32,000 bases of DNA, from positions 1,020,001-1,052,000 of the forward strand of contig NC_008698.1 of the NCBI RefSeq assembly GCF_000015225.1, in the 5' to 3' direction. This DNA is from Thermofilum pendens Hrk 5. Its GTDB lineage: Archaea > Thermoproteota > Thermoprotei > Thermofilales > Thermofilaceae. Shown piece by piece: positions 1,054-20,002 of the stretch (position 1 is the first letter of the stretch; each line of letters starts with the position of its first letter). The position numbers and the translations under genes were made by a program. Below the pieces are notes generated by a model, which saw only the letters and a list, made by a program, of their open reading frames with translations, was not told the DNA's origin and did no database searches.

Positions 1054-1054
1054 T

Positions 1055-2557: not shown

Positions 2558-2559
2558 AA

Positions 2560-4635: not shown

Positions 4636-6002
4636 ACCCTGCGCAGACGGTAACAGCGGCGACGGGGTTGCTGGCCGCCGTAGCCGCTCTCTCGCCGTAC
4701 TTCAAGGGGAAGACTAGGCAGTTGCTCGCCTTAACTCTGCTCGACGTCGCGCTCGCCGCTCTCGCAGAGCTCCACGTGATCTTCTCGGGCGGCCTAAGTC
4801 AGGGGGAGCTCCTAGCGGATAGGTACGCCGCGTTGCTGGCGCTGGTATTCCTCCTCGACCTCTCGATAGTCCTTCTGGGATCGTCGTCCACGGTAGCCCA
4901 GTACGAGGAAGGCAACGCGCTGATCGGAGCGGTAGCGCTGGCGGCCGCCGGGCTCCTCGGGATTAGCGTCTCGGGCACGGTGCCGCTCCTCCTCGTATCG
5001 TGGGTCCTCGTGTCAGCCGCTAGCTACGCGTCCATAGCCCTGCCCAGGGACAAGTACTCCGCCTCCGGCGCCTCCAAGTACGGCCTGATGAGCCTCGCCT
5101 CGTCCATGCTGCTCCTAACGGCCCTCGGCCTCGCATCGTTCAACAGCCCGTCCCTAAGCCTACCGAGCGTGGTTCCCGCCGGGCGCGAGGTGGCGGCCCT
5201 CGCCCTAGCGTTCACCGTGGCATCGGTTGGCTTCAAGGCGGGCGCCTTCCCCTTCCACGCGTGGCTGCCGGACACGTACGGGGTATCCGACCCCTACCCC
5301 GTCTCGATCGTGGCTCCCCTATCCAAGGGCGCCGTGCTACTAGCGTTCTATAAGGTCTCTGCCATCCTGGCCCCCGAGGCGCGCCAAGAGTGGCTTTGGA
5401 TCGTGGGGCTGATAGCGCTACTCACGATGACTTACGGCAACATAACGGCGCTCCTCCAGAGGGGGTTCCAGGGGCTACTCGCCTACAGCAGCATCGCGCA
5501 CGCAGGCTACCTCCTCGTCGGAGTAGCCGCGCTATCCTCGCAGCAAGCCGCGCCGACAGCTCTCTACGGCCTCGTGTTACAGCTAGCCGCGTACTCCTTC
5601 GCCAAGACGGGGCTATTCCTACTGGCACGGCTGGCGAGAGCCCGGGAAGGCCCCCCAGTCGCGCTCGACGACCTCAGAGGCTTATCCACCGTCGATAAGC
5701 CCCTAGCGGCGTCCGCGACGATACTAGTCCTAAGCCTCATGGGGATGCCGCCGCTCGCCGGCTTCTGGGGCAAGCTGTTCATCTTTCTCGCGGCCGTAGG
5801 CCCGGCGCCCTGGCTCACCGCGGTTGCGCTGATAAACACGGGTATAGCCGCCGCCTACTACGCGAGGATAATAAAGGCGGTGTACTTCGAGCCGGGGAAG
5901 CCCCACCTCTACGCGGACAGGGGCCTGAAAGTCGTCATCGTGGTCACCGCGGCCGCGAGCCTCCTCGCGGGTCTTGTCCCTCTAGTGCTCCCCCCAGCCT
6001 GA
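4632..6002 (+). CDS. nuoN: NADH-quinone oxidoreductase subunit N (antiporter-like)
   Basis: Motif FPFHAWLPDTYGVSDPYPVSIVAPLSKGAVL. GTG 4632 forms a GTGA overlap with the nuoL stop. The Arg-rich N-terminal extension from 4521 looks non-coding in that frame. Confidence 0.85.
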   Translation: MNPAQTVTAATGLLAAVAALSPYFKGKTRQLLALTLLDVALAALAELHVIFSGGLSQGELLADRYAALLALVFLLDLSIVLLGSSSTVAQYEEGNALIGAVALAAAGLLGISVSGTVPLLLVSWVLVSAASYASIALPRDKYSASGASKYGLMSLASSMLLLTALGLASFNSPSLSLPSVVPAGREVAALALAFTVASVGFKAGAFPFHAWLPDTYGVSDPYPVSIVAPLSKGAVLLAFYKVSAILAPEARQEWLWIVGLIALLTMTYGNITALLQRGFQGLLAYSSIAHAGYLLVGVAALSSQQAAPTALYGLVLQLAAYSFAKTGLFLLARLARAREGPPVALDDLRGLSTVDKPLAASATILVLSLMGMPPLAGFWGKLFIFLAAVGPAPWLTAVALINTGIAAAYYARIIKAVYFEPGKPHLYADRGLKVVIVVTAAASLLAGLVPLVLPPA

Positions 6003-6017
6003 ACCCCTAAACCTGTA

Positions 6018-6023
6018 TTTTTT
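6018..6023 (+). terminator. Oligo-T tract downstream of nuoN (archaeal-type terminator candidate)
   Basis: T6 run 16 nt after the nuoN stop, with a second T5 run at 6052-6056. Confidence 0.4.
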
Positions 6024-6076
6024 ACGACTTCCCTTCGGATAACCCTGAAAATTTTTCCTCCATCTTCGAGTAAGCG

Positions 6077-6084
6077 TTAAAAAG
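6077..6084 (+). promoter_or_regulatory. TATA-like box for the glutamine synthetase gene
   Basis: TTAAAAAG centred about 25 nt upstream of ATG 6105, implying a leaderless or short-leader mRNA. Confidence 0.4.
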
Positions 6085-6104
6085 GCGTAGAGGAGCTTCC
6101 CTCT

Positions 6105-7382
6105 ATGCAGGGAGAAGACTTCGAAAGGGCTTTCAAGCAGCTCCGCGACAAGGGCGTAAAGTTCTTCGAGGTTGTATTCCAGGATCTCGGAGGAGTTCTA
6201 CGGGGCAGGGTTCTAAAGCCGGAGAAGCCCGACGACGTTGCGCGCGGCTTCAGGATAGACGCGTTCAGCACGGGTTTCAGCGGCGTCGAGGACTCCGACG
6301 CAACGTTGCTACCGGACCTCTCCACGCTGAGAGTATACGAGTCCTCGATAGGTAGGACAGGCTTCCTCATAGGGGACCTCTACCGCGGGGGCAAGCCCAT
6401 GGAGACGTACCCGAGGAACCTGCTGAAGAAGTGGGAGGCGGAGTCCAGGTACAAGGTCCTGCTGGGGGCGGAGCTCGAGTTCTACCTGGCGAGGGACTAC
6501 AAGCCAGTGGACAACGGCGGCTACATGTACGTCTCCCCCTACTCGACCGTGTACCCCGTGATCGCAGAGATAGTCACGAAAGCGGAGGAAGCGGGGCTAG
6601 CGCTGAAAGCCGCGCACCACGAGGTAGGCCCCGGGCAGTACGAGGTGTTACCGACGCCCATGAGCCCCCTAGCCCTCTCCGACGCCATAGTCTTCCTGAA
6701 GAAGCTCATATGGGAGGCTGCGAGCGCGAGAGGCCTCCAGGCCACCTTTATGCCTAAGCCCTTCAACGGTTTGCCGGGCAACGGGCTCCACGTGCACATC
6801 TCGGTGCACGACGGCGACAGGAACGTCCTCTTCGAGGACGGCGAGCTGACCGAGGAGGGCCGCTCCGTGATCGGAGGGCTACTGGCTTACACCGTCCCGC
6901 TTATACTGTTCACGAACCCCACTATTAACTCCTACAAGAGGCTCGTACCCGGCTTCGAAGCCCCGATCTACCTAACCTGGGGGAGGGGGAACAGGTCCAC
7001 GATGATCCGGGTCCCGATGGGGCTTAGAGGCGCCTCGGGCGTCGTGGAGTACAGGCTACCGGACTCCTCCGGGAACGTGTACCTGAAGGCCCTCGCGGTC
7101 CTATACTCGGCGGAGAGGGGGCTGAGGGAGAGGGTAGACCCCGGGCCGGAGTGCAGGGTTAACGCCTTCCTCGCAGACGGGTACCCGCGCATACCGGGGA
7201 CTCTCGGAGAAGCACTCGAGAAATCCCTGGAGTCTATCGGCAAGGCCCCGGAGCTAAGGGACCTGCTATCCAAGGTGGCCGAGCTCGAGAAAGGGGAGTG
7301 GCGCCGCTACTTGGAGGAGGCGGGCTCCCCAGAGGCCTCCGAAGTCACGGAGTGGGAGGTGAAGAGGTACTTCCTGGGCTGA
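6105..7382 (+). CDS. glnA: Glutamine synthetase (GlnA family, 425 aa)
   Basis: GS motifs seen by eye: GAELEFYL, HHEVGPGQYEV, ATFMPKPFNGLPGNGLHVHISV, NSYKRLVPGFEAP, GNRSTMIRVP, VEYRLPDSSGNVYL. Confidence 0.85.
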   Translation: MQGEDFERAFKQLRDKGVKFFEVVFQDLGGVLRGRVLKPEKPDDVARGFRIDAFSTGFSGVEDSDATLLPDLSTLRVYESSIGRTGFLIGDLYRGGKPMETYPRNLLKKWEAESRYKVLLGAELEFYLARDYKPVDNGGYMYVSPYSTVYPVIAEIVTKAEEAGLALKAAHHEVGPGQYEVLPTPMSPLALSDAIVFLKKLIWEAASARGLQATFMPKPFNGLPGNGLHVHISVHDGDRNVLFEDGELTEEGRSVIGGLLAYTVPLILFTNPTINSYKRLVPGFEAPIYLTWGRGNRSTMIRVPMGLRGASGVVEYRLPDSSGNVYLKALAVLYSAERGLRERVDPGPECRVNAFLADGYPRIPGTLGEALEKSLESIGKAPELRDLLSKVAELEKGEWRRYLEEAGSPEASEVTEWEVKRYFLG

Positions 7383-7424
7383 TACGCCCGGCTGGCGCGT
7401 GCGAGGTTTTCTTCGCCCAGCGCG

Positions 7425-8168
7425 CTACAGGGGCTTGAGGGACTCGAAGTACTTTTCTAGGTAGCGTTTGTTCGCCTCGTCGCCTCCCGGCACGTTCGCG
7501 CTCATCCAGACCTCGGGCTTCACCCCCGCCGAGAGGAGTTTCTGCACAGTCCTGGCTACGAGTAGCTGGAGTATGAAGGAGCACACGATCGTAGACACGG
7601 GCGCCACTTTTTGCTCGCACCCCTCTATCTTGAGGATCGCGTCGCCCTCGGGGACCTTGTTGTCTATAACGACGTCGGCTACCTCGTAGAGCCTCTTCCC
7701 GAGGGGGTTGCTCGGAGGCACCTTCCTGCTGTACTCCACGGAGGTTATAGCTATGACCTTGACTCCCCTGTTCCTCGCCTCTACCGCCATCTCGACGGGA
7801 ACAGCGTTCTTCCCGGAGTTGCTCACAATTATCAGCGAGGAGTTCGGCTTTATAGGCGTGGAGTCGAGGAGCGCCTTCGCGTAGCCGGGCAACCTCTCCA
7901 TGTACGTGCTCTTAAGCGCGCCGTTAAAGCCGGAGACGCTTAGGTCGAGGAGGGGGTAGACGCGTACAAGCCCTCCAGCCCTGTAGAACACCTCCATGGC
8001 CATCAGCATGGAGTGCCCGGTCCCGAACACGTAGATGAAGCCGCCGCTCTTCAAGGTATGGGCGAGGACCTCGGAAGCCTTTTCGAGGTTGAGCTTTTCC
8101 TCCCGGAGAATCCTGTCGAATATGCCTACAACGCCCCTGTAAAACTCGGTGTAGACGTCCTGCACCAT
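7425..8168 (-). CDS. SIS-domain protein of the UPF0309 family (putative sugar-phosphate isomerase/binding protein)
   Basis: 247 aa. Matches my recollection of UPF0309 proteins: GTGHS...[34 protein letters not shown] at the C-terminus. Divergent from the HPr gene. Confidence 0.7.
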
Positions 8169-8195
8169 TCGGTACCAAGCCTACATAGTACGGGT

Positions 8196-8207
8196 AAAGA
8201 TATAAAC
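8196..8207. promoter_or_regulatory. Single central AT-rich TATA-like element in the 67-nt divergent SIS/HPr intergenic region
   Basis: AAAGATATAAAC. Its centre (~8203) is essentially the midpoint between ATG 8168 (minus strand) and ATG 8236 (plus strand). Confidence 0.4.
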
Positions 8208-8235
8208 GTTCGCATTGTACCGCGTCCGAGGGCTT

Positions 8236-8508
8236 ATGAAGACCCTGAAGGTGAAGGTTTCCAATAGGAGCGGTCTGCACGCGAGGCCCGCGGCGGTCTT
8301 CGTTCAGACAGCCAGGAAGTTCAAGTCTAGGATAACTGTGAGGAAGCTGGACAAGGCGGCGGACTCCAAGAACATCCTACAGCTGCTCGCGCTGGGAGTG
8401 GACATGGGCGACGAGATAGAAATTGTGGCGGAGGGCCCCGACGAGGAGGAGGCCATAGCCGAGCTGGGAAAACTGCTCACAGAGGTTCTACCGTCCATAG
8501 ACAAGTAA
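8236..8508 (+). CDS. ptsH: PTS phosphocarrier protein HPr
   Basis: 90 aa from ATG 8236. Active-site context SGLHARPAAVFVQTA with His at position 15. Alignable along its whole length to bacterial HPr. Confidence 0.9.
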   Translation: MKTLKVKVSNRSGLHARPAAVFVQTARKFKSRITVRKLDKAADSKNILQLLALGVDMGDEIEIVAEGPDEEEAIAELGKLLTEVLPSIDK

Positions 8509-8511
8509 GAG

Positions 8512-10251
8512 TTACTCGAAGACCCTAATGCCCCTTCTCTCCAGGTAGCTCCTAGCCCAAGCTCTAACCTCCCTGGACGTGCTCGCGGACTCTACGACCT
8601 CCCTAACCTCCCTCGAAGCCTCCTCGAGGTCTATCCTCCTCACTACGTACTTCACCCTCCCGACGAAGACGGGGGCTACGCTCAGCCCCTGCACCCCGAG
8701 CCCCAGTAGGGCTGGGACGGCGAGGGTTCTGCTAGCCATCTCCCCGCAGACCTCGACCTCCGCCCTCCCGCCCAGCTTGTCCACAGCGTAGGCTATCAGC
8801 CTGAGAACTGCGGGGTTAAGCTCGTCGTACACCTTGCCGACGTGCGCGCTCCCCCTGTCCGCCGCCAGGACGTACTGCGTCAAGTCGTTGGTTCCGAAGC
8901 TGACGAAGCTCAAACCCCCCTTCTCGACTAGCTCGCGGCTGAGAAGCGCGGCGGAGGGGACTTCTACCATCACGCCCAGCCTCGGGACCCTCGCTTCGAA
9001 GCCCTCGCTCCTCAGCTCCTCCTCGGCCCTCCTGACCTCCTCCGAGAGCTCCTCGACCTCCTCGACCGTCGAGACCATGGGGAACATGAGCCTCAAGTCG
9101 CCGTGGACAGCCGCCCTCAGCGCCGCCCTGAGCAGCGGCCTGAGCAGTTTATCCCTGTACTCGAGCAGTAGGCGCGTACCGCGGAGCCCCAGCTGGGGGT
9201 TCGCCTCCTTCGGGAGCTCCAGGAAGTTCACAGGCTTGTCGCCCCCTATATCGGGAGCCCTGACCGTGAGGGGCCTGCCGCCGAGCACCTCCAGACTCTT
9301 CTTGAACAGCCCGTAGAGCTCCTCCTCGCCCGGCGCCTCCTGACGCACCATGTACGCGAACTCTATCCTGAAGAGCCCTATACCGCCGCACCCGTAGCCC
9401 GGAGCGGCTCTGACCTCCTCGAGCCCCCCGGCGTTGCACAACACGTCGACGCGGCGGCCGTCCAGCGTTACGGGCTCGAGCCCCTCCTCCTTCGAGAACA
9501 GCGCTAGCATTCTGTTGTACTCCTCGGCCAACGCCCCGTAGCGTTCCTCCTCCTCGGCCGTCGGGTTGACGAGGAGAACGCCGTTCACGCAGTCCAGCAC
9601 CGCCTCGTCGCCGTCCCTGACGAGGCCAAGGTCGAGCTCTCCGGAGATCATGTAAGGCACTCCCTTGAGCCTCGCCAGTATGGATACGTGGGCCGTCAAC
9701 CCTCCTTTACGGGTCACGAGGCCCGCCAACCCCTCCTCGGCAGCTTCCAGGAACTGTATCGGGTCGAGCTCCTCCGCCACAGCGATCCTCCCGGAGTAGC
9801 CCCCGCCGGCCGTCTTCCCACCGGTCAAAACCGAGACGAGCCTGGACGCGAGGTCCCGGAGGTCCTGCACTCTGAGCGCGAAGAGCTCGCTACCGCTCTT
9901 CAGCATCTCGGCGTACTTCTCGTAGACGCTCTTCACCGCGTACTCGGCGGAGAGGGAAGAGGACTTCACGAGCTCCCCCGCCTCGGCTACGAGGGATTCC
10001 AGCATCAACAGCTGTGCGTCCACGATCTCGCGCTCCGCGGCCGGCAATACCCTCTTAAGCTCTTCCAGCCTCTCCCTAACGAGCGAGCCAGCCCGCGACA
10101 GCCTCTCGAGCTCCCCCTCGACATCGCCGACGCGCCTCTCCTCGACTAGCCCGAGCACGTCGACAGCGCGCACGACGAGTAGACGTCCTCTGGCAACCCC
10201 CTGAGAAACCACCTGGCCTCTAAACTTCAGGCTTTGAGGCACGCTAAACAA
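8512..10251 (-). CDS. ptsI: PTS Enzyme I (phosphoenolpyruvate-protein phosphotransferase)
   Basis: 579 aa. Phospho-His motif GGLTAHVSILARLKGVPY; PEP-binding motifs SFGTNDLTQY and VCGEMAS. The start is TTG 10251 or in-frame GTG 10242. Confidence 0.92.
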   Translation of the reverse strand: MFSVPQSLKFRGQVVSQGVARGRLLVVRAVDVLGLVEERRVGDVEGELERLSRAGSLVRERLEELKRVLPAAEREIVDAQLLMLESLVAEAGELVKSSSLSAEYAVKSVYEKYAEMLKSGSELFALRVQDLRDLASRLVSVLTGGKTAGGGYSGRIAVAEELDPIQFLEAAEEGLAGLVTRKGGLTAHVSILARLKGVPYMISGELDLGLVRDGDEAVLDCVNGVLLVNPTAEEEERYGALAEEYNRMLALFSKEEGLEPVTLDGRRVDVLCNAGGLEEVRAAPGYGCGGIGLFRIEFAYMVRQEAPGEEELYGLFKKSLEVLGGRPLTVRAPDIGGDKPVNFLELPKEANPQLGLRGTRLLLEYRDKLLRPLLRAALRAAVHGDLRLMFPMVSTVEEVEELSEEVRRAEEELRSEGFEARVPRLGVMVEVPSAALLSRELVEKGGLSFVSFGTNDLTQYVLAADRGSAHVGKVYDELNPAVLRLIAYAVDKLGGRAEVEVCGEMASRTLAVPALLGLGVQGLSVAPVFVGRVKYVVRRIDLEEASREVREVVESASTSREVRAWARSYLERRGIRVFE

Positions 10252-10263
10252 CTTCAGGACCCC

Positions 10264-10292
10264 TTATTTAAGCCTGTGCACACCTTTAAGTA
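10264..10292. promoter_or_regulatory. Divergent ptsI/nagA promoter core: two TATA-like TTTAAG elements flanking the palindrome TGTGCACA
   Basis: Arrangement TTTAAG-CC-TGTGCACA-CC-TTTAAG at 10267-10290. The right element lies 25-32 nt upstream of nagA GTG 10317. The left element read on the minus strand (CTTAAATAAGG) lies 13-24 nt upstream of the ptsI start. Confidence 0.4.
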
Positions 10293-10316
10293 GGAGTTCT
10301 CCGCAACATACCCCGG

Positions 10317-11483
10317 GTGGGGCTGTTGAGAGTACTCGTGAAGAACGCCCACGTTCTCACCCCTCTGGGCGACCTCGGGGTCGTCAACGTGATGGTGAAG
10401 GACGGCGTCGTCGAAGGCTTCGACGTCGAGGCTGTCCCCGATAGGGTCGTAGACGCGGAGCGCTACTACGTCGCGCCGGGCTTCATAGACACGCACATAC
10501 ACGGCTACGGAGGCGTAGACGTAACCGAAGCCAGCGCGGAGGAGATACTCGAAATGTCCGGCGGGCTCGCGGAGCACGGGGTCACGGGTTTCCTCGCATC
10601 GACGGTGGCGGCGCCCCACGAGAGACTCCTCCAGGCGTGTAGCAACGTCGCCGCGGCGAGCTCGCGGTGGAGCCCCTCAAAGGGGGCGAGGATCCTCGGA
10701 GTCCACCTTGAAGGTCCATACCTCAACCCGAAGATGAAGGGGGCTATGAACGAGCAGTACTTCCGCAAGCCTAGCCTAAGGGAGCTCGACGAGTACGTCT
10801 CGGCGTCGAGGGGCCTCGTGAGGCAGGTCACAGTAGCCCCCGAAGTCGAGGGTGCCTTGGAGTTCATAGAGGAGGCGAGCAGGAGGGGCATCACGGTGAG
10901 CGTAGGGCACACGGACGCCACGTACGAGCAGGCGCTCAGGGCGGTCGAGGCGGGAGCCCGGAAGGCGAACCACATCTTCAACCAGATGAGGGGCTTCCAC
11001 CACAGGGAGCCTGGCACCGCCATGGCGTTACTCCTAGATACGGACGTCTTCGTGGAGATGATAGTGGACTTCGTGCACCTACACCCGGCGACCGTGAGGC
11101 TTGTTTACCGCCTGGCGGGCCCCCTGAGGACAGTGCTCATAACTGACGCAGTGCGCGCGGCGGGGCTCCCCGACGGCGAGTACACCCTCGGGGGCTTGCG
11201 GATAGTGGTGAAGGAGGGGGTTTCCAGGCTGGCAGACTCGGGGGCTCTCGCCGGCTCGACGCTCACGATGGACAGGGCGGTCAGGAACATGACGAAGGTG
11301 GGTGCGAACACTCTCGAAGCCCTGACGATGGCGAGCTACACCCCGGCGAAAAGCGTAGGGGCTCTTGGAAGGGAGAGGGTCGGCCTGCTCAGACCCGGGT
11401 ACGCGGCGGACATGGTAGTCCTAGACGAGAGGCTAGAGGTTAAGAAAACGATTATAGCCGGAGAAGTCGTGTACGAGGCTTGA
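10317..11483 (+). CDS. nagA: N-acetylglucosamine-6-phosphate deacetylase (NagA/AgaA family amidohydrolase)
   Basis: 388 aa. Metal-binding motif GFIDTHIHGYGGVD, plus HLEGPY, VGHTDA and NHIFNQM, all typical of NagA. Confidence 0.88.
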   Translation: MGLLRVLVKNAHVLTPLGDLGVVNVMVKDGVVEGFDVEAVPDRVVDAERYYVAPGFIDTHIHGYGGVDVTEASAEEILEMSGGLAEHGVTGFLASTVAAPHERLLQACSNVAAASSRWSPSKGARILGVHLEGPYLNPKMKGAMNEQYFRKPSLRELDEYVSASRGLVRQVTVAPEVEGALEFIEEASRRGITVSVGHTDATYEQALRAVEAGARKANHIFNQMRGFHHREPGTAMALLLDTDVFVEMIVDFVHLHPATVRLVYRLAGPLRTVLITDAVRAAGLPDGEYTLGGLRIVVKEGVSRLADSGALAGSTLTMDRAVRNMTKVGANTLEALTMASYTPAKSVGALGRERVGLLRPGYAADMVVLDERLEVKKTIIAGEVVYEA

Positions 11484-11493
11484 GGCGAGGCGG

Positions 11494-13323
11494 ATGGGGG
11501 GCATATTCGGGGCCGTGTCTAGGAGCGGCGGGAACGTCGTCCCGCTCGTCGTGACAGGCCTCGAAAGGCTGAAGTACAGGGGCACCGACAACTCGGGAAT
11601 AGCCGTAGCCCGAGAAGGGCGCCTAGAGGTCTACAAGGACACAGGGCCCATAGACGTGGTAGCGCGCAAGCTAGGCCTCGACAAGCTCCAGGGTAGCGTA
11701 GCCCTCGGGCACACGCGCTACGCCACTCACGGTAGGCCTACAGCCGAGAACGCCCACCCCCACGTCGACTGCGGGAGACGCTTAGCGGTAGTCGGCGACG
11801 GCTCTATCTCGAACTACGAGGAGCTGAAGGACAAGGTGTTACTCAACGGGCACAGGCTAACGTCGAGGAGCGACTTCGAAGTCGTGGCCCACGTCCTGGA
11901 GGAAGCGTTCAGGGAGGGCCGCGCCCCCGAGGCTTTACCGGGAGTGCTCTCCGAGAAGCTGCAGGGCTTCTTCGCCGTAGCCTTCCTGGACGCATCCACG
12001 GGTAGCATCTACGCCGCGACGACGGGGCCGCAACTCTTCCTCGGCGCGTCCCGGGAACTCTTCCTCGTATCTACGAGCAAGTACGCTATGCACGGCTTCG
12101 CGGAGCGCTACAGGGAGGTGAGGAGGGGCGAGGTAGTCCGGGTCTCCAGCGAGGGAGTCGAGGTGTACACGGGCGCGGGGGTCGGGGGGCTCGGGGAACT
12201 ACAACCCTTGCATCTCGACCCCTCCCTTGTGGAGAAGAACGGCTACAAGCACCACATGCTCCGGGAGATATACGAGGTGCCCGAGTCCCTTATGAGGACC
12301 CTGAGCTCCGTGCAGAAGAAGTACCTCCAGCTCGCGGCAAGGCTCGTTACAGGCGCGGACAACGTCTACATAATCGCCAACGGTACGAGCCTGCATGCGG
12401 GGATGGTCGCTTCCTACTACTTCTCGGAGCTCGTAGGGGTAAACCCCGTAGTGGTCAGCGCGGCGGAGTTCCCGCTCTACTACCTCGAAAACATAGGCCC
12501 CGGCAGCCTGGTCCTAGCGATATCCCAGTCCGGCGAGACGGGGGACGTGCTCTCCTCCCTCTACGAGGCGAAGCTCCGCGGGGCGACGATACTGGGCATA
12601 ACGAACTACGTGGGCTCGCGGCTCGCCCGCCTCTCAAACCTCTACCTCCCGATAGCGGCCGGCCCCGAGCTAGCGGTTCCGGCGACGAAGACCTTTACCT
12701 CTACTCTGCTACTGCTGTACCTGGTGGCCCTCAGGGCGTCCAGGCAGGAGGGCAGGATAGACGAGGACACGCTTAACTCGAAGCTAGCCGCGGTAGCCGA
12801 GGCGGCGCGGCAACTCGGGGAGTGGCTACCCAAGGTTGACTCGGAGGCCTCCAAGGCGGCAAACGAGGTATCCGAGTGCAGGGGAGGCTACGTGGTGTCG
12901 AGGGGGCTTACCTACCCGCTCGCGCTCGAAGGGGCCTTGAAGCTGAAAGAAGCCTCCTACTTCCACGCCGAGGGGGTAGAGGCGGGCGAGTTCAAGCACG
13001 GTCCATTCGTACTCGTCGAGAAGGGCTTCGGCGTGGTATTCGTCGTACCTGTCGAGAAAGTCTCCGCCGAGGCTACCTACCCGCTAGTCGGGATGGCTCT
13101 GGAAGCCGGCGCCAAGGTCGTAGCGGTAGGCTTCGCCGGAGACCAGAGCCTGGAAGCCCTCTCGGAGAAAGGCGCCGCCGTCGTAGCCGCGCCGCCCGCG
13201 GAGAGGCACCTCGCGCCGATAGTCCTGGCGGTTCCCCTGCAGCTACTGGCCTACAGGCTGGGCGAGAGGCTTTCAAGACCAATCGATTCCCCGCGCTACC
13301 TGACGAAAGCCGTTACCCAGTGA
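11494..13323 (+). CDS. GlmS-like protein (Ntn glutaminase-like domain + two SIS domains) lacking the catalytic N-terminal Cys; candidate hexosamine-6-phosphate deaminase/isomerase
   Basis: 609 aa and colinear with GlmS. N-terminus is MGGIFG instead of MCGI(V/I)G. Isomerase-domain motifs are retained: SQSGETGD, GEFKHGP and a C-terminal LTKAVTQ. Confidence 0.85.
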   Translation: MGGIFGAVSRSGGNVVPLVVTGLERLKYRGTDNSGIAVAREGRLEVYKDTGPIDVVARKLGLDKLQGSVALGHTRYATHGRPTAENAHPHVDCGRRLAVVGDGSISNYEELKDKVLLNGHRLTSRSDFEVVAHVLEEAFREGRAPEALPGVLSEKLQGFFAVAFLDASTGSIYAATTGPQLFLGASRELFLVSTSKYAMHGFAERYREVRRGEVVRVSSEGVEVYTGAGVGGLGELQPLHLDPSLVEKNGYKHHMLREIYEVPESLMRTLSSVQKKYLQLAARLVTGADNVYIIANGTSLHAGMVASYYFSELVGVNPVVVSAAEFPLYYLENIGPGSLVLAISQSGETGDVLSSLYEAKLRGATILGITNYVGSRLARLSNLYLPIAAGPELAVPATKTFTSTLLLLYLVALRASRQEGRIDEDTLNSKLAAVAEAARQLGEWLPKVDSEASKAANEVSECRGGYVVSRGLTYPLALEGALKLKEASYFHAEGVEAGEFKHGPFVLVEKGFGVVFVVPVEKVSAEATYPLVGMALEAGAKVVAVGFAGDQSLEALSEKGAAVVAAPPAERHLAPIVLAVPLQLLAYRLGERLSRPIDSPRYLTKAVTQ

Positions 13324-13330
13324 CGCCGGA

Positions 13331-14578
13331 ATGGCGGCTATAGGGGTAGCCCTCGGAGCCGTACCCATAACCCCCTCCCCGCCCGCGGGCCACGAGCTCG
13401 CAGGCTACATAGCCAGGCAGGGGCGCTCGCTCGGAGCCCACGACGACGTCGAGGCTAGGTGCATGCTTATAGACTGGCAACCGGCAGTCCTGCTGGTAAA
13501 CCTAGACCTTCTCGGCGTCGACTCGGGGATAGTTGAAACCGTTCACAGGGTGGCGGAAAGGGAGGTCGGGGCGGTGGAGGTCGTTGTAAGCGCTACGCAC
13601 ACCCACTCCGCGCCAGCAACACTCTTCACAAACCCACTGCTGACGTTCGGGGGGAGTTTCCTGCGCCGAGACTACCTGGCATACTTCGAAGAGAGGCTCA
13701 GAATCCTTTTTCAGGACCTCGCGGGGAGGGTTGAGCGGCACGATGTACTCGTAGGGAAGGGATCCGTGAGCGGCGTGGTTACGGACAGGGAGGATCCAGG
13801 CAGAAAGGTGGACGACGAGGCACTGGTAGTCGTGTTTAAAAGGGGGCTCCAGACGGCTGGGTACCTGCTTAACTACGCGGTACACCCCACGGTTCTGGGC
13901 CCCGACAACCTGCTGATCTCGAAGGACCTCGTAGACCCCGTCCTCAGGTACCTGGGCGCGGCGTGGAAAGCGGGGGTAGGCTTGTTCCTGAATGGCGCGG
14001 CTGCAAACGTGTCTACCAGGTTTACGAGAAGGGGGCAAACATTCGAGGAAGCAGAAAGGCTCGGAAAGCTACTCGTGGACCAACTCCTCCTGTTACCTCT
14101 TAGAGGCATGCCCGGGGATGCCGCAGAGGTGGATTTACAAGCCAAAAGGGTCAGTGTGTCCTTTAGGCAACCGTCGCCGGAGGAACTGTCAGCAGCGTTA
14201 CGCGTGGGTGCAGGGTCGGCGCACCCCAGGGTGAGGGAAGCTATCCTCGAAGGCGTGAAAGCGCTGGAGAGGATAACCCCCTACCTATCCTCCGCTGGGC
14301 GCAGCGAGGTCGAGCTACGTGTTCTCAGGATAGGGTCCTTGAGGCTTCTCTTCGCGCCCTTCGAGCTCCACTCCGACTTCTCTCTACGACTGAAGCGGTT
14401 TGCCGGATCCGGTAAGCTGGGGCTCGTAGGCTACTCGGGGGAGTATCTAGGCTACCTCGTCCCAAGGGACTACGCGCTCGGCTATGAGTCTGTCATGCAG
14501 GTTCTCGACGAGGAGAGCTCGGAGAGGGTTTTAAGGGGGTTAGAGGAGGTGTTAGACTTCGATCCACTTCCCGCTTGA
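13331..14578 (+). CDS. Neutral/alkaline ceramidase-like N-terminal-domain hydrolase (putative amidohydrolase), cytoplasmic
   Basis: The pattern G-x-ITP...AGY...G(A)HDD(V)EARC(M)LI...NLDLL...SATHTHSAP resembles the ceramidase-family N-terminal domain. No signal peptide. Third gene of the nagA operon, with a 7-nt spacer. Confidence 0.5.
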   Translation: MAAIGVALGAVPITPSPPAGHELAGYIARQGRSLGAHDDVEARCMLIDWQPAVLLVNLDLLGVDSGIVETVHRVAEREVGAVEVVVSATHTHSAPATLFTNPLLTFGGSFLRRDYLAYFEERLRILFQDLAGRVERHDVLVGKGSVSGVVTDREDPGRKVDDEALVVVFKRGLQTAGYLLNYAVHPTVLGPDNLLISKDLVDPVLRYLGAAWKAGVGLFLNGAAANVSTRFTRRGQTFEEAERLGKLLVDQLLLLPLRGMPGDAAEVDLQAKRVSVSFRQPSPEELSAALRVGAGSAHPRVREAILEGVKALERITPYLSSAGRSEVELRVLRIGSLRLLFAPFELHSDFSLRLKRFAGSGKLGLVGYSGEYLGYLVPRDYALGYESVMQVLDEESSERVLRGLEEVLDFDPLPA

Positions 14579-15664
14579 ACTAGACTCGTAGACGGCGTCG
14601 AGAAGTTTTTGGCTCCGGACACCGTCACTAATTGTCGGGTGGTAGTCTTCCCTCAGCCCCGAGAGGTACTCGAAGAAAGTCTTGTAGAGTATCACGTAGG
14701 AGAACACCCAGCCCTCGAAACTCTTGGGTAGAGGCCAGGCAAGGTCGCCGTAGATCTCCTCGTAGCCCTTAACTATTTTCTCTGTCCTCCCTGTTTCGCG
14801 CCGGTAGAGGTGGAGGACGTGGGGCTCGCTTAGCGAGAACCTCGCACCACCCCTATCCCCGTAAACCTCTACCCTCATTTGCTCCTCGAAGCCCGGCGAT
14901 ACTTTCGAAGCCTCTACTGAGCCCACAGCCCCAGCCTCGTACTCCAGTACTGCGAAGCCAATATCCTCTGTATCAACCCTCCTCTTCAACCCCGTAGCGG
15001 GGTCTACCCTCTCGCCGACAAGCGTGTAAACCTTGCCGAAAACCCTCCTAACCCTCCCCCCAGTCACGTACTCAGACAAGTCGAGTACGTGCACACCTAT
15101 ATCCGCGAAAACCCCTCCACCAGCCACGCTCCTATCCATCCTCCACTCAAACGGTGTATCCTTGTAGGCATGCTTCGCGTGCGCTATAACCCCCCTGAAC
15201 TCCAAGAAGTCGCCAAGCTCTCCCCGCACGACAAGATCCCTCAAAACCTGTATCCCCGGTGTAAACCGGGATACAAGGCAAACAGCGACACTCCTACCAA
15301 CCCTCCTCGAGTATCTCTCAATCTCCTCGGCTTCCCGAGCATTAAAAGCGACAGGCTTCTCGAGCACAACGTTAAACCCCCTCTCGAGTGCCCTCAAAGC
15401 GTAGGGGTAGTGCGTGTTGTTAGGAGAAGCTATACCGACAACGTCCAAATCCTCCCCGAAGAACTCCGACTCACTCGTAGTCCACTTCTCGAAGCCATAC
15501 TGCCTAGCAAGAGCCTCCGCGTGAGCAGGAGTCCTGCTAAACACAACCCTCAACTCAACCTCGGGGAAGCCGCTCCTCCTCACAACCCTCCCAAGACTAG
15601 ACAAGGAGAATGCCTGAGCAGAAGCCGACCACCCAGAGCCTATAAGCCCAACCCTTATCCTCAT
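14552..15664 (-). CDS. Gfo/Idh/MocA-family NAD(P)-dependent oxidoreductase
   Basis: N-terminal Rossmann motif RVGLIGSGW and a conserved EKP motif (VVLEKPVA). ATG 15664 is preferred because GGTG lies 8-11 nt upstream, just after the IIB stop. Confidence 0.8.
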   Translation of the reverse strand: MRIRVGLIGSGWSASAQAFSLSSLGRVVRRSGFPEVELRVVFSRTPAHAEALARQYGFEKWTTSESEFFGEDLDVVGIASPNNTHYPYALRALERGFNVVLEKPVAFNAREAEEIERYSRRVGRSVAVCLVSRFTPGIQVLRDLVVRGELGDFLEFRGVIAHAKHAYKDTPFEWRMDRSVAGGGVFADIGVHVLDLSEYVTGGRVRRVFGKVYTLVGERVDPATGLKRRVDTEDIGFAVLEYEAGAVGSVEASKVSPGFEEQMRVEVYGDRGGARFSLSEPHVLHLYRRETGRTEKIVKGYEEIYGDLAWPLPKSFEGWVFSYVILYKTFFEYLSGLREDYHPTISDGVRSQKLLDAVYESSSSGKWIEV

Positions 15665-15673
15665 TAAGCACAC

Positions 15674-16177
15674 CTAGAATTTCAGTTTTCTAAGCTTCTC
15701 CTCGAGGTCGACGGGTTTCGGCGGGAAGTCTGGGAGCTGCTGGTAGTAGACCTTTATGCCCATGTCGAGGAGTCTTAGTAGCGCTTTGTGCTCCTCCGGT
15801 CCCACGTCGAACGTCTTCTCTACTTTGACGCGCCCAGCCCTGTAGCCCATCTGCCCCGCCAGTATCCAGTCCACCTTTACGCCGGACTTTTCGATGAAGG
15901 CTAGCACGTCGATCGGGTTTTCGAAGAGCATTAAAACCCTGGTGTTATTCCCTACGTTCCTCGCCTTGGCGGCGGCCTCCTCTACCTTTAAAACCTCCAC
16001 GGAGATGCCTGGAGGCGCCAGCATTATTTGCAACTGCTTCAAGGCTGGGTTTCCCGCTATTTTATCGTTGACAACCCATATGGCGTTTGCCTCGAACTTC
16101 TTCGTCCACGCGGCCGTTACCTGCCCGTGGATAAACCTGTCATCTATACGGATAAAGATGTTCTGCTTTTTCTCCAT
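15674..16177 (-). CDS. PTS mannose/fructose/sorbose-family IIB component
   Basis: Signature IRIDDRFIHGQVTAAWTK contains the phospho-His. ATG 16177 is preceded by GGTGGGTGAT. The ORF-track TTG 16192 is the alternative start. Confidence 0.88.
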   Translation of the reverse strand: MEKKQNIFIRIDDRFIHGQVTAAWTKKFEANAIWVVNDKIAGNPALKQLQIMLAPPGISVEVLKVEEAAAKARNVGNNTRVLMLFENPIDVLAFIEKSGVKVDWILAGQMGYRAGRVKVEKTFDVGPEEHKALLRLLDMGIKVYYQQLPDFPPKPVDLEEKLRKLKF

Positions 16178-16218
16178 ATCACCCACCTGCAAGCTTTTTG
16201 GATAACGGTCACCTCTTT

Positions 16219-16659
16219 CTAAAAATCTTTTCCGGAGGGACCCTCTTCCTTTTTACCCGTTAACTCCCGGAGCCCTGGACCTACGAATGCCCTTACACCC
16301 TCCATGCCTGCGCTTTTTGCTCCAAGAACGAGCGACTCCAGGTCTTCGTCCTGGGAGGATAGGAGCTGTATAACCATTGCCATGTTGAAGCCTGTAATCA
16401 CCGCTTTCACCTTGGATTCCTGTAGGAGCATGAGTGCCGCCTTGCTTGGTGTCCCCCCGAAGAGGTCCGCTAAGACTATAGTGTCCCCGTCAACCCTGCT
16501 CGCAAGCTTCTCGTAGTAGTTTTCGAAGCTTTCACCTTCCAGGAGCTCGACGCAGTCGGTGACTTCTTTCACGGAGACCCCTAGGATCATCGCGACTGCC
16601 TCCCGCATGGCACAGCCTAGCCCTCCGTGCGAGGCAAACACTACTCTCAAGGCTCTCAC
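16219..16659 (-). CDS. PTS mannose-family IIA component
   Basis: 146 aa with N-terminal VVFASHGGLG (phospho-His context of EIIA-Man). GTG start in a GTGA overlap with the upstream gene's stop. Confidence 0.85.
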   Translation of the reverse strand: MRALRVVFASHGGLGCAMREAVAMILGVSVKEVTDCVELLEGESFENYYEKLASRVDGDTIVLADLFGGTPSKAALMLLQESKVKAVITGFNMAMVIQLLSSQDEDLESLVLGAKSAGMEGVRAFVGPGLRELTGKKEEGPSGKDF

Positions 16660-17540
16660 CTCAAGTGGGACATCGCGACACGCCTATATGTGTGTCTAAC
16701 ACCCCTCACCGCTACCGATAGTTCGAGTATGTTCTCAGGCACGGCGACGCCCATCCTGTACCCGGAGTCTCCTATGTGGTGTATGTCGCAACCGCATGCC
16801 TTCGAGGCCAACCCTATCTTCCTGATTACGGAGCTACTCGAGCCTTCCTGGGAAGTGCCGATCGCGCACATGAGGAGAGCGTCGTACTTGTAGACCAGCC
16901 GCGCCACGGCGCTTACTCTTTCCGGGAGAGACCCGGGGACGGTGTAAGGGGCAGGCACGACTACGCCGTCGGCGCCCGCCGCTAGCACGTCCTCTATCAG
17001 TTTCAGGTCGTAGATGTCCTCGCCGCGAATCCCCCCGCTGTGCATCTTACCCCCGAACACCAGTGCTCTCTCGCCGACTATGCGCTTCGAAGCTTCGACC
17101 CCCTCCCTGATCCTGGACCACGTTACGCCGAGACCGGGGTTACCAGTCACCACTATGAGTCTAGAACCCTGCTCGATGCTCTTTTCGATGCTTCGCGGCG
17201 ACAGCCTCCTCCCCTCGGGTATAACGCCCGGATCCACGGGTTCAAGGTTATTTCCAACGAATCTCTGCAGGAACTCGGAGAGATCCGAGATGCTCGCGTA
17301 CTCCTCCGGCACCCCCTCTACCCTGGGGTTAAAAACGTCGTACATGTTCAACAGGACCATGTCCGCCCCGAAGGACGCCGCTAGCTCTACGTTGGAGACT
17401 CCATCCACGAGTGGAGGAGACTGGACGACGACTTCCGCGCAGATAGTCCTACCCTCGGAGCTTACGACGGAAGACTTGAAGTCTTTAGCTGAAATCTTTG
17501 CAAGCTCCCTACCACTCAGATCTAATACTCTTTTCGCCAT
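16656..17540 (-). CDS. Uncharacterised protein leading the IIA-IIB-oxidoreductase operon; possibly a phosphate-binding (beta/alpha)-barrel enzyme
   Basis: 295 aa from ATG 17540. The longer ORF to 17681 would run through the divergent promoter and the IIC-IID start. Gly-rich FGGKMHSGGIRGE and IGTSQEG resemble phosphate-binding loops. No family recognised with confidence. Confidence 0.6.
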   Translation of the reverse strand: MAKRVLDLSGRELAKISAKDFKSSVVSSEGRTICAEVVVQSPPLVDGVSNVELAASFGADMVLLNMYDVFNPRVEGVPEEYASISDLSEFLQRFVGNNLEPVDPGVIPEGRRLSPRSIEKSIEQGSRLIVVTGNPGLGVTWSRIREGVEASKRIVGERALVFGGKMHSGGIRGEDIYDLKLIEDVLAAGADGVVVPAPYTVPGSLPERVSAVARLVYKYDALLMCAIGTSQEGSSSSVIRKIGLASKACGCDIHHIGDSGYRMGVAVPENILELSVAVRGVRHTYRRVAMSHLR

Positions 17541-17597
17541 TCCGGGTGAACCTGAAACTAAGCCCACCGAATTAAGTTTTCGTCGTAAAGCACAATC

Positions 17598-17628
17598 TTT
17601 ATAAATAGGTTGGTAAAAGCCTATTTGT
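17598..17628. promoter_or_regulatory. TATA box TTTATAAA plus overlapping inverted repeat ATAAATAGG-N10-CCTATTTGT abutting the IIC-IID start codon
   Basis: TATA at 17598-17605 is 24-31 nt upstream of ATG 17629. Inverted-repeat arms are at 17601-17609 and 17620-17628 (7/7 core, 8/9 extended). Confidence 0.45.
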
Positions 17629-19233
17629 ATGGCGACCATAGGCCCACTCGAGGTAGGGCTTCTAGGACTGCTAGCCTTCATCTTCGGACTGGACTACATC
17701 TGGGTAACACCTCTCGGAATCTGGCGCCCCGTGGTCGCGGGGACCCTCACAGGCATTATTCTAGGAGACCCCTTGACAGGGCTACTCGTAGGCTCGCTAC
17801 TAGAGTTCGTGTTCGCTGGGCTATTCACGATAGGAGGCGGGACCGTTCCGGAGGCTGCTAGCGGGACGATAGCCTCCGTGGTTGTCGCCGTTACTACGGG
17901 GTTAAAGCCTGAGGCGGCGGTACCGCTGGCTATACCCGTAGCAGTGCTTACAATGAACTTGGAGATAGTTGTCAGGTCTTTCGACGCGGTGTTCACGCAC
18001 TGGGCTGACAGGGAGATAGAGAGGGGGAACTACGGGGCAATCCCCCTGATAAACATTCTCGGCGCGGTACCATGGGGGCTCAGCAGGGCAATACCTATCT
18101 GGCTATTCGCGGGAGCCTTAGCCATAAACCCACAGGCCGTTAAAGCGGCGATAGATGCCCTCCAAGTGGTTCAAATCGGACCCTTCACGGTGCGCTTCTG
18201 GGACGCGATGGCAGTCGCGGGCGCCGTACTCCCAGCGCTCGGTGCCGCCATTCTAATGAAACTCATGATCTCGCGTAGGAACGTGATGTTCTTTGTACTC
18301 GGCTTCGCTCTCGCAGCCTACCTGAAGCTAAGCCTCCTGGCGATAGCCCTCGTAGCGGGATCCATAATCTTCGCTATCTACTACTTCACCCACCGCGAGG
18401 CATTGGAGGCTGGAGCCGCGGTAACCACAGCGGCACCACCCACCGGCAAGGCAACGACGAAGGACTTCATAAGGTGGTTCGGGGTCTCATGGTTCATACA
18501 GTCGTCCTGGAACTACGAGAGAATGATGGGGACAGGCTTCGCGCACGGTATGCTTGAAATAGAGAAGAAGCTTAGAAAGGACCCGGAGGAGCTGAAGTCC
18601 TGGATGAGGCTACACAACGAGTTCTACAACACCGAGCCCCACCTCCACAACGCCATTTACGGGATGGTGATATCCCTAGAGGAACAGGGGGCGGATCAGG
18701 ATACGATAAGAGGAGTCAAAACAGCGCTTATGGGTCCATTCGCAGGGCTCGGAGACTCGATAATGTGGTTCACGATCCTCCCGATAGCGTTCCTCTTAGG
18801 AGCCTCGCTGGGAGCCCAGGGCAACATACTCGGCCCGGTAATAGCGCTACTGATATGGATACCAGTCTCCTGGGCCGTTAAGTACTACACGCTCGTCTAC
18901 GGGTACAAGTACGGCTTATCCCTGGCGGAAATACTCAAGGGAGAAGTCCTGAAGATATTTAGGGAGGGTATAGCAGCCTTCGCGATGGCAATGGTCGGAG
19001 GAATCGCGGCGACATACGTCAGGGCGACAACCCCGATAGTACTGGCCCAGTACGCTGGTCACGCCATTAAGCTACAACCAGTACTGGACCAGTTGATGCC
19101 ATCCCTGCTCCCACTGCTCTTCACCCTCTACGCCTACTGGCTAATAAAGGTCAAAGGCTACAGCTACGGTAAAGCCGTCGTCATACTCTTCCTCACGGCA
19201 TTCATACTCGCACTGCTAGGAGTACTCGGTTAA
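17629..19233 (+). CDS. PTS mannose-family IIC-IID fusion permease
   Basis: 534 aa. The N-terminal half is a IIC-like polytopic domain. An Ala/Thr/Pro linker spans 18391-18468. The C-terminal half carries IID motifs (FIQSSWNYERMMGTGFAHGM, LHNEFYNTEPHL). Confidence 0.88.
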   Translation: MATIGPLEVGLLGLLAFIFGLDYIWVTPLGIWRPVVAGTLTGIILGDPLTGLLVGSLLEFVFAGLFTIGGGTVPEAASGTIASVVVAVTTGLKPEAAVPLAIPVAVLTMNLEIVVRSFDAVFTHWADREIERGNYGAIPLINILGAVPWGLSRAIPIWLFAGALAINPQAVKAAIDALQVVQIGPFTVRFWDAMAVAGAVLPALGAAILMKLMISRRNVMFFVLGFALAAYLKLSLLAIALVAGSIIFAIYYFTHREALEAGAAVTTAAPPTGKATTKDFIRWFGVSWFIQSSWNYERMMGTGFAHGMLEIEKKLRKDPEELKSWMRLHNEFYNTEPHLHNAIYGMVISLEEQGADQDTIRGVKTALMGPFAGLGDSIMWFTILPIAFLLGASLGAQGNILGPVIALLIWIPVSWAVKYYTLVYGYKYGLSLAEILKGEVLKIFREGIAAFAMAMVGGIAATYVRATTPIVLAQYAGHAIKLQPVLDQLMPSLLPLLFTLYAYWLIKVKGYSYGKAVVILFLTAFILALLGVLG

Positions 19234-19292: not shown

Positions 19293-19979
19293 TCAGCTAT
19301 AGCTCATACGGTTAACTATCTCCTCGATTACTCTTACCACGCAGTCCCCGTACTTCTCTTCGCAAACTATGTCCGCTTTCTCCTTGACTTCTCGCGCGGC
19401 GTTCCCAACGGCCACCTTGACCTTCGACTTTTGGAAGAGCGGTAGGTCCGTGCGGCTATCTCCGATGCTTACTATCATGGCGTCGCTCCACCCAGTCAGC
19501 TTGAGAAGCCTCTCGAGACCCACACCCTTATCGATGCCCCTAGGCATGAACGCATACGTCCGCGAGCCGACCTTCGCGAGGTCGTACCCGAAGGCTCCCA
19601 GCTTCTCCCTAGCAACTCTCTCCGCTACCTGGAGTTCCTCCTCGTCGACGTAGTACAGCACTCTCCCCTCGTTTACAGCCGGTACGCTTTCCCTGAGTAC
19701 TGCCCGGAGCCTATCCCACCCCCACGGCTTGAATATAACCTCCAATGCTTCGGGCAACGCTACGACTGAGCCCACCTCCAGTATGAGCGCGTCTACGAGC
19801 CAGAGCTTACCCACGAACCTCGATATGTCCTCCAGGGGTCGCGCCGTCGCTATAACGAACTTGAAGGGGTACTTTGCTTTGAGCTCTTCGAGCTTCTCCA
19901 AGACGCGGGGCTCCACCTCTCTGTTCTCCTCGGCCAGCGTACCGTCGTAGTCGGACACCACGATCCACTCGCCGCTCAT
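19293..19979 (-). CDS. HAD-superfamily (IIB/Cof-like) phosphatase, probable sugar-phosphate phosphatase
   Basis: Motif I VSDYDGTL and motif IV GDSRTD. Size and cap region fit HAD-IIB. ATG 19979 is adjacent to GTG 19982. Confidence 0.8.
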   Translation of the reverse strand: MSGEWIVVSDYDGTLAEENREVEPRVLEKLEELKAKYPFKFVIATARPLEDISRFVGKLWLVDALILEVGSVVALPEALEVIFKPWGWDRLRAVLRESVPAVNEGRVLYYVDEEELQVAERVAREKLGAFGYDLAKVGSRTYAFMPRGIDKGVGLERLLKLTGWSDAMIVSIGDSRTDLPLFQKSKVKVAVGNAAREVKEKADIVCEEKYGDCVVRVIEEIVNRMSYS

Positions 19980-20002
19980 CACGTATGCTACGCGTGGAAC
20001 AG

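Follow-up and report, generated by a model that had tools for sequence, protein, structure and literature searches.

A clade of archaeal GlmS paralogues that lacks the catalytic cysteine, predicted to act in amino-sugar catabolism

Two groups of described enzymes are closest to the gene considered here. Glutamine:fructose-6-phosphate amidotransferase (GlmS) combines an N-terminal Ntn-type glutaminase domain, in which Cys1 is the nucleophile and Asn98 and Gly99 are partners in the oxyanion hole, with an isomerase half made of SIS subdomains, and in the Escherichia coli enzyme the ammonia channel has the C-terminal tail as its wall. GlmD of the Thermococcus type, NagB-II (Shewanella SO3506; PDB 3HBA/8EOL) and AgaS are hexosamine-6-phosphate deaminase/isomerases of the SIS fold that work without glutamine. 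Additionally, a dead glutaminase domain is known to be kept in carbamoyl-phosphate synthetase I (Cys to Ser) and in β-lactam and carbapenam synthetase (AsnB-like, no Cys1). The subject of this study is the open reading frame (ORF) 11494–13323 (+) of Thermofilum pendens Hrk 5, located in a stretch of 32,000 nucleotides (NC_008698.1, positions 1,020,001–1,052,000) that we refer to as the window and from whose first letter all coordinates are counted. Its 609-residue product is a full-length paralogue of GlmS in which the catalytic cysteine is replaced by glycine. Judged from its sequence, we suggest with a probability of about 0.68 that the protein is glutaminase-inactive and converts glucosamine 6-phosphate (GlcN-6-P) into fructose 6-phosphate (Fru-6-P) and NH3 without the use of glutamine. 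The interpretation as an amino-sugar deaminase is based on the loss of the glutaminase residues, on the intact isomerase site and on a genomic context of nagA and genes of a phosphotransferase system (PTS).

ORF 11494–13323 is the longest of its region, and the affiliation of its product with GlmS is clear over the entire length. Pfam identifies GATase_6/7 plus SIS domains, hence the two-domain GlmS architecture, with the Ntn-type domain at residues ~1–243 and two SIS subdomains at residues ~253–609. The protein exceeds the cut-offs of both NCBIfam GlmS models (TIGR01135, 480.5 bits against 418; NF001484, 481.9 bits against 381) and can be aligned over its full length with structures of E. coli GlmS (E=1e-84, ~31% identity). 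The AlphaFold 2 (AF2) model is of high confidence (pLDDT 92.8 overall), the N-terminal domain included (~95 over residues 1–140), with the last six residues disordered, and its top matches in Foldseek are full-length GlmS and GFAT. The isomerase domain superimposes on the crystal structures with a TM-score of 0.88; for the whole chain the score is only ~0.54, so the orientation of the domains in the model differs from that in the crystals.

The opening codons ATG GGG GGC ATA TTC GGG translate to MGGIFG (N-terminus MGGIFGAVSR), just as a preliminary description of this DNA had read them, and the Gly-Gly recurs in the homologues, which supports this start independently. That description had also argued that no cysteine could precede GIFG, given a stop at 11481–11483. 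The conclusion stands, and the reason has to be replaced. The TGA at 11481–11483 is the stop codon of nagA, situated 13 nt from the ATG and out of frame with the ORF. The in-frame stop is TAG at 11455–11457, and from there to the ATG the frame runs through 12 codons, PEKSCTRLEARR, a stretch that does hold a Cys codon (TGT, 11470–11472) and in which none of ATG, GTG and TTG is found, so that a start upstream of the cysteine is not available.

Whereas the preliminary description treated a single gene, the feature defines a clade across the Thermoprotei, and its residues were compared with those of canonical GlmS in an alignment of 512 full-length sequences (E. coli numbering). Position 1 is Gly in 215/215 clade members and Cys in 291/291 canonical GlmS; position 98 is Asp in 99% of the clade and Asn in 100% of the canonical sequences. 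The corresponding codons in T. pendens are GGG at 11497–11499 (Gly2, with Met as residue 1) and GAC at 11797–11799 (Asp102). The two positions occur as the pairs Cys+Asn (290 sequences), Gly+Asp (212), Gly+Glu (2) and Gly+Thr (1), and never as Cys+Asp, a covariation that excludes chance or sequencing error. In a scan of every E. coli position, these two substitutions (C1 to G and N98 to D) were the only ones in the N-terminal domain at which a residue invariant in canonical GlmS is fixed otherwise in the clade. Around them, constraint has been relaxed. Residues W74, T76, H77, H97 and Y28, conserved to 98–100% in canonical GlmS, and E102 (91%) are all variable among the Cys-less proteins: W74 has become Tyr in T. 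pendens (Tyr 83%, Phe 17% in the clade), and at the glutamine site T76 is Ser or Thr, H77 is Arg or His, and H97 is Gly, Met or Val. The C-terminal tail has changed as well. Counted from Lys603, it consists of the six residues KSVTVE in 288 of the 291 canonical proteins; in the clade it is variable and shortened to five residues (169/215) or four, with KAVTQ of T. pendens being one residue shorter than the canonical form. Residues R599, N600, A602, S604, V605, T606 and V607, near-invariant in canonical GlmS, vary in the clade, with R599, N600 and A602 lost; position 602 is Thr in T. pendens and Val, Ala or Thr in the clade. With no nucleophile, with Asp in place of Asn98 and with relaxed gate and channel residues, the Ntn domain is expected to be unable to hydrolyse glutamine.

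The N-terminal domain is not, for all that, in decay. R73, D123, N84, P87 and E125 stay invariant in the clade, as does G99, the oxyanion-hole partner of Asn98, which T. pendens also keeps. The ratio of non-synonymous to synonymous substitutions (dN/dS, Nei-Gojobori) between close pairs of metagenomic orthologues is 0.14–0.30 (~0.2) in the N-terminal domain and 0.05–0.16 (~0.08) in the isomerase domain; at matched divergence of the isomerase domain, the N-domain identity is 0.72–0.80 times the C-domain identity in the clade, as compared to 0.88–1.03 times in canonical GlmS. The domain is therefore relaxed yet under purifying selection, and the preliminary description of it as degenerate and possibly regulatory agrees with both aspects. 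We presume that its retained role is structural or regulatory.

The isomerase half presents the opposite picture. The T. pendens protein keeps all site residues of the E. coli enzyme (S303, S347, Q348, S349, T352, K485, E488, H504 and K603), found in the motifs SQSGET (S347–T352), LKLKE (K485/E488), GEFKHGP (H504) and LTKAVTQ (K603). The equivalent of the Schiff-base lysine Lys603 is Lys605 (codon AAA, 13306–13308, +), a Lys invariant in both the clade and canonical GlmS. Among the 215 clade members, the conservation of S303, S347, Q348, S349, T352, T402, K403, K485, E488, H504 and K603 is complete or almost complete (98–100%). It had been proposed earlier, from a hand alignment, that Asp takes the place of Asn98, and the isomerase half, with SQSGETGD, GEFKHGP and LTKAVTQ, had been judged to look intact; the full alignment confirms these proposals and, together with them, the loss of the nucleophile. 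Relaxed glutamine and channel residues next to a preserved sugar site are the pattern to be expected if glutaminase activity and ammonia transfer were no longer selected and the sugar-phosphate chemistry still was.

The Cys-less sequences are monophyletic in 100/100 neighbour-joining bootstraps, and the T. pendens protein nests with clade members from Infirmifilum and Thermofilum-like organisms. The clade comprises more than 200 homologues from Thermoprotei. Those of the first search came from Thermofilum/Infirmifilum, Ignisphaera, Desulfurococcaceae, Thermosphaera, Acidianus and Sulfolobus; among the best 120, all 115 with a residue there have Gly-Gly at E. coli Cys1-Gly2, most of them starting with M/V/L-G-G. 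A second search, seeded from Sulfolobus, gave 87 further Sulfolobales and Desulfurococcales relatives (76 with the M/V/L-G-G start) and added Saccharolobus solfataricus, S. islandicus and S. shibatae, Sulfurisphaera tokodaii, S. ohwakuensis and S. javensis, as well as Stygiolobus, Staphylothermus, Thermoproteus, Acidilobaceae and Tardisphaera. Cys-less proteins ranked first in a HMMER search of 1.84 billion cluster representatives, eight of nine scoring 355–627 bits, and ordinary GlmS with the MCG start followed from 361 bits downward. A database protein (Logan) is 99% identical and the Infirmifilum homologue 66%. The T. pendens protein shows the complete clade signature of G1 with D98, A400P and the shortened tail. 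A profile search of genome contigs with the clade alignment, which picked universal GlmS motifs, had no clade members among the matches listed, these being mostly bacterial GlmS with few from archaeal metagenome-assembled genomes (MAGs); with P0125, the nearest canonical sequence, as query, the homologues returned were bacterial or unnamed GlmS and carried no information on Thermoprotei. The literature searched, a limited set in which absence is not proof, contained no description of a Cys-less GlmS.

As an observation apart, a separate set of GlmS sequences from sediment metagenomes starts with M-V-G-I-F-G, Cys1 being replaced by Val (L115, L119, L123, L128, L130, L134, L135, L144, L146, L147). 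Two of these, L119 (10001–11824) and L123, were translated in full and keep HNG, RWATHG and a KSVTVK tail. L119 branches with the canonical sequence P0129, and the Val1 set is unrelated to the Cys-less clade; it could reflect a recent loss, recoding or an issue of the start codon, or an assembly quirk.

The genus Thermofilum has both forms of GlmS. A scan of metagenomes revealed a canonical protein of 605 residues, with MCGIVGIAS at its start and with HNG, RWATHG and AKTVTVE, at two loci (L143, positions 10001–11815, and L164) from the same hot-spring samples as Cys-less loci; the protein clusters are named Thermofilum sp. by both NCBI and UniRef. This second GlmS, a search for which the preliminary description had considered informative, shares 38% identity with the T. 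pendens protein, is placed outside the Cys-less clade by neighbour-joining and is encoded among housekeeping genes. Its presence makes the Cys-less protein a paralogue. In S. tokodaii, the Cys-less gene is located at ~2.554 Mb of the 2.695-Mb genome. A protein of that organism, ST2186, was reportedly found by Dadashipour et al. in 2018 to have glutamine:Fru-6-P amidotransferase activity. From proportional locus numbering, we presume the position of ST2186 to be near 2.1 Mb; as this differs from ~2.554 Mb, ST2186 is probably another gene than the Cys-less one, and a canonical GlmS.

The genes around ORF 11494–13323 point to the uptake and breakdown of amino sugars. Directly upstream, as noted in the preliminary description, is nagA for N-acetylglucosamine-6-phosphate deacetylase (10317–11483, +; TIGR00221, 304 bits against a cut-off of 226), separated from the ATG by 10 nt. 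After a further spacer of 7 nt there follows an ORF of 415 residues (13331–14578, +) that matches neutral ceramidase weakly and over its N-terminal part only (Pfam Ceramidase_alk); it is probably part of the same operon. This string of three genes is divergent from ptsI, encoding enzyme I (8512–10251, −; TIGR01417, 389 bits against a cut-off of 342). Although a PTS is a rarity among archaea, the window holds a complete one of the mannose family, the remaining components being HPr (8215–8508, +; Pfam PTS-HPr, 1.4e-30), IIA (16219–16659, −; NCBIfam AgaF and EIIA-man, both below cut-off, with Pfam EIIA-man recognized in the syntenic gene of locus L002), IIB of the mannose/sorbose family (15674–16192, −; Pfam PTSIIB_sorb, 7e-39) and a fused IIC-IID (17629–19233, +; Pfam EII-Sor plus EIID-AGA).

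The association recurs across the clade. Of 12 genome contexts, nine have neighbours of the nagA, PTS or glycan-catabolism kind, as do almost all of the related loci from metagenomes, and this supports the catabolic role proposed at the outset. Adjacency to nagA is seen in the window, Infirmifilum, Desulfurococcaceae MEX13E, A. brierleyi, S. tokodaii, Staphylothermus marinus and 12 metagenome loci (locus codes L002, L089, L005, L091 and L173 among these cases). Synteny with Infirmifilum sp. NZ (L002) and with about a dozen metagenome contigs extends over the whole block of the window, and PTS genes adjoin the Cys-less gene in the window, in L002, in L090 and in most Thermofilaceae loci. Arrangements elsewhere are diverse. 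The Thermoprotei MAG of L090 has the gene directly after ptsI in a differently arranged PTS cluster; Desulfurococcaceae MEX13E has a nagA–glmS-like operon together with SIS_2, ceramidase-like and GFO genes and no PTS. In A. brierleyi and S. tokodaii, the Cys-less gene is divergent from nagA (TIGR00221, 272 bits); it stands among GH116, GH31 and GH38 genes and a PIG-L deacetylase in the former, and it adjoins Dpp-type ATP-binding cassette (ABC) transporter genes in the latter. In S. tengchongensis and S. solfataricus, it lies beside MupG-like genes and sugar or oligopeptide-type ABC transporters. In S. marinus (L173), it is convergent with a nagA whose product is 48% identical to NagA of the window. 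The S. marinus stretch 233–11016 further holds genes for a ROK kinase, a GH42-like protein, GH130 and an Asparaginase_2 of the glycosylasparaginase type, and taken together it looks like a cluster for N-glycan salvage. Neither a classical NagB nor a SIS-only GlmD was seen in the loci examined.

On this basis, a pathway can be proposed in which the mannose-family PTS would import an N-acetylhexosamine with phosphorylation at the 6-position, NagA would remove the acetyl group to release GlcN-6-P, and the Cys-less enzyme would open the sugar ring with the participation of H504, form an imine with Lys603, isomerize via Glu488 and so provide Fru-6-P for glycolysis along with NH3. The predicted reaction is the reverse of the synthase half-reaction of GlmS, as in GlmD, NagB-II and AgaS, and biosynthesis of GlcN-6-P in Thermofilum would be left to the canonical MCG enzyme.

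Further members of the locus are conserved and could extend the pathway. In Thermofilaceae loci, the ceramidase-like gene comes after the Cys-less glmS in every case, and L089 and L109 also have it close by. No relative of its product was found in the PDB by sequence search; the protein might serve the pathway as a second amidase or deacylase. A GFO/IDH/MocA oxidoreductase (14552–15673, −) is another conserved member, and a DUF7916 protein is encoded between IIA and IIC-IID (16656–17681, −; Pfam 1.8e-105; syntenic in L002, L099, L103, L106, L110 and L112), again with no PDB relative found by sequence search. The conserved locus ends with a Cof-type HAD phosphatase (19293–19982, −; Pfam Hydrolase_3; syntenic in L002, L099, L106, L110 and L112). 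At 7425–8168 (−) lies a gene for a SIS_2 protein homologous to Streptomyces NagS (PDB 9eol, SCO4393; E=6e-47). The SIS_2 gene adjoins nagA in L089 (7879–8619) and in many metagenome loci, and it is also present in L094, L095, L099, L102, L104, L107, L108 and L110. NagS has recently been described as a GlcNAc-6-phosphate (N-acetylglucosamine 6-phosphate) dehydratase and reported as limited to Streptomycetaceae (PMC12680351). The finding here is that archaeal nagA/PTS loci carry a NagS-like SIS_2 gene, in whose product the essential NagS residues H53, R64, E94, D179 and N228 are conserved and S91 is Thr (HMMER alignment). Beside it is a glutamine-synthetase-like gene (6105–7382, +; 264 bits, with the GlnA cut-off at 429), seen also in L094 around 3997, whose product could capture the released ammonia or else be a γ-glutamyl ligase for another amine. 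By eye, the 65 nt that separate the divergent genes ptsI and nagA (10252–10316) contain the TATA-like elements TTATTTAA and CTTTAAG, plausible as archaeal TATA boxes; with CTTTAAG ~30 nt before the GTG of nagA, a leaderless nagA transcript is suggested. The flanks are unrelated to the Cys-less gene and contain three Nuo/Mrp-type antiporter-like membrane subunits (1046–6002), an MFS transporter (26553–27833), a GH1 glycosidase (27833–29386) and a galactose-1-phosphate uridylyltransferase (30381–31397).

Several observations weigh against the proposal of a catabolic deaminase. Paralogy is shown at the level of the genus only. In Ignisphaera, Thermosphaera and one Sulfolobales MAG (3/12 contexts), the neighbours are housekeeping genes and none is catabolic. 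Residues near the sugar site are fixed unlike those of canonical GlmS (Y304L, G398A, A400P, S401A, K503R/L), so that the substrate could be another hexosamine phosphate. The literature searched yielded no assay of any clade enzyme. Moreover, the fixed Asp98 in combination with the kept R73 and D123 is not explained by the simple picture of a dead domain, and the strict fixation of the former and the retention of the latter suggest that the old glutamine pocket still binds some ligand. A carboxylate (Asp98) fixed at the site of the glutamine amide carbonyl, next to the invariant head-group binders R73 and D123, raises the possibility of a repurposed N-terminal domain, its pocket occupied by glutamine, a basic amino acid or NH4+. 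The enzyme might then be a nitrogen-sensing, allosteric amino-sugar deaminase or, in lineages devoid of canonical GlmS, as Ignisphaera and Thermosphaera may be, the cell's only GlcN-6-P synthase, dependent on ammonium. We hold this to be unlikely as it stands.

Of the explanations that depart from a deaminase of GlcN-6-P altogether, an ammonia-dependent GlcN-6-P synthase retains the most credit, although we regard it as rather improbable. The enzyme would work anabolically, on Fru-6-P and NH3/NH4+, with the Asp98 pocket capturing ammonium, in a parallel to carbamoyl-phosphate synthetase I. The same intact site would serve it, the reaction being chemically the reverse, and the housekeeping neighbourhoods just mentioned, the presence of Asp98 in 99% of members, the purifying selection on the N-terminal domain and the nearby glutamine-synthetase-like gene are all in its favour. 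However, Thermofilum has the canonical GlmS for biosynthesis, and the gene directly follows nagA inside a PTS uptake locus, an association found in many lineages. The relaxation of W74, A602, V605 and the tail is likewise difficult to reconcile with a need for passage of NH3 from the N-terminal domain. Additionally, the equilibrium of NagB and GlmD favours deamination unless ammonium is high. In the lineages of Ignisphaera, Thermosphaera and the Sulfolobales MAG, the clade enzyme might nonetheless work anabolically with NH3.

The same chemistry might be applied to a different substrate imported by the PTS, be it galactosamine 6-phosphate (as in AgaS), mannosamine 6-phosphate or an Amadori/Heyns compound (as in FrlB and GfrF). 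The clade-specific residues near the sugar site would fit, and so would AgaF as the best NCBIfam match of EIIA (below cut-off), the fact that TIGR00221 also covers AgaA-type deacetylases, and the extra enzymes of the locus (GFO/MocA oxidoreductase, ceramidase-like amidase, DUF7916 and NagS-like SIS_2 proteins). We nevertheless see little prospect for it, for all GlmS residues that contact Fru-6-P/GlcN-6-P or take part in catalysis are invariant, no tagatose-6-phosphate kinase or aldolase was seen in the window, and the NCBIfam model of FrlB scores 37 bits (cut-off 430), with the GlmD and NagB-II models also far under the GlmS scores.

That the protein is still a glutamine amidotransferase, served by an alternative nucleophile or by a partner glutaminase, is very improbable: the glutamine head-group binders R73, D123 and G99 are invariant and the GlmS equivalog cut-off of NCBIfam is passed, but no N-terminal Cys, Ser or Thr exists in any of the 215 members, the second-shell and channel residues are relaxed, and no glutaminase is linked, the class-I GATase ORF at 24088–24627 being 11 kb off in another context. 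An invariant Cys93 was considered as substitute nucleophile and rejected, given that its HPHVDC motif is also present in canonical archaeal GlmS. An artefact (sequencing error, wrong start codon or decaying pseudogene), for which the unusual N-terminus alone would speak, is refuted for practical purposes by the conservation of that N-terminus in isolates as well as metagenomes (more than 200 sequences), by the intact ORF with dN/dS well under 1 in both domains and by the lack of an in-frame start codon upstream.

The assignment of a catabolic deaminase, if correct, has consequences for annotation as well as for physiology. More than 200 clade proteins (from Thermofilaceae, Sulfolobaceae, Desulfurococcaceae, Ignisphaera, Thermoproteus and Caldivirga) carry the name 'glutamine--fructose-6-phosphate transaminase' in public annotation. 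As clade proteins pass a curated equivalog cut-off without the nucleophile, it is probable that in metabolic reconstructions of these archaea a catabolic enzyme is taken for the biosynthetic one and the route of amino-sugar degradation is overlooked. The clade would supply the missing deaminase for the catabolism of N-acetylglucosamine and N-glycans in Crenarchaeota. With respect to the evolution of amidotransferases, it offers a case of two coupled substitutions, a relaxed ammonia channel and a dead Ntn domain that has long been kept.

Compared to the known systems, the T. pendens protein is by homology a member of the GlmS family. It shares with GlmS (EC 2.6.1.16; 1JXA, 2J6H, 4AMV) the full-length homology, the two-domain architecture, the isomerase residues and a TIGR01135 score above cut-off, and it is unlike GlmS in having Gly for Cys1 and Asp for Asn98, in lacking the canonical gate, channel and KSVTVE tail, in the catabolic contexts of the Cys-less genes and in the existence of a separate canonical GlmS in the genus. 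Carbamoyl-phosphate synthetase I and the β-lactam and carbapenam synthetases resemble it in their descent from amidotransferases, in the loss of the nucleophile and in the selection for a folded domain, and they belong to other families with other chemistry. NagB (Pfam Glucosamine_iso) has the predicted net reaction and the partnership with nagA in common with it but is of unrelated fold, and Pfam/NCBIfam searches detected no similarity between the two. The function predicted here is that of GlmD, NagB-II and AgaS, whose typical linkage to nagA/agaA and uptake genes is matched by the adjacent nagA and PTS. These enzymes, however, consist of SIS domains only (~330–390 residues), whereas the T. 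pendens protein keeps the whole Ntn domain, scores far below the cut-offs of the GlmD (NF041128, 58.7 bits against 580) and NagB-II (NF046059, 123.4 bits against 430) models and branches inside full-length GlmS, not with the SIS-only enzymes. The net chemistry predicted is already known from other enzyme families; the full-length Cys-less clade to which we would ascribe it is coherent, widespread and mis-annotated.

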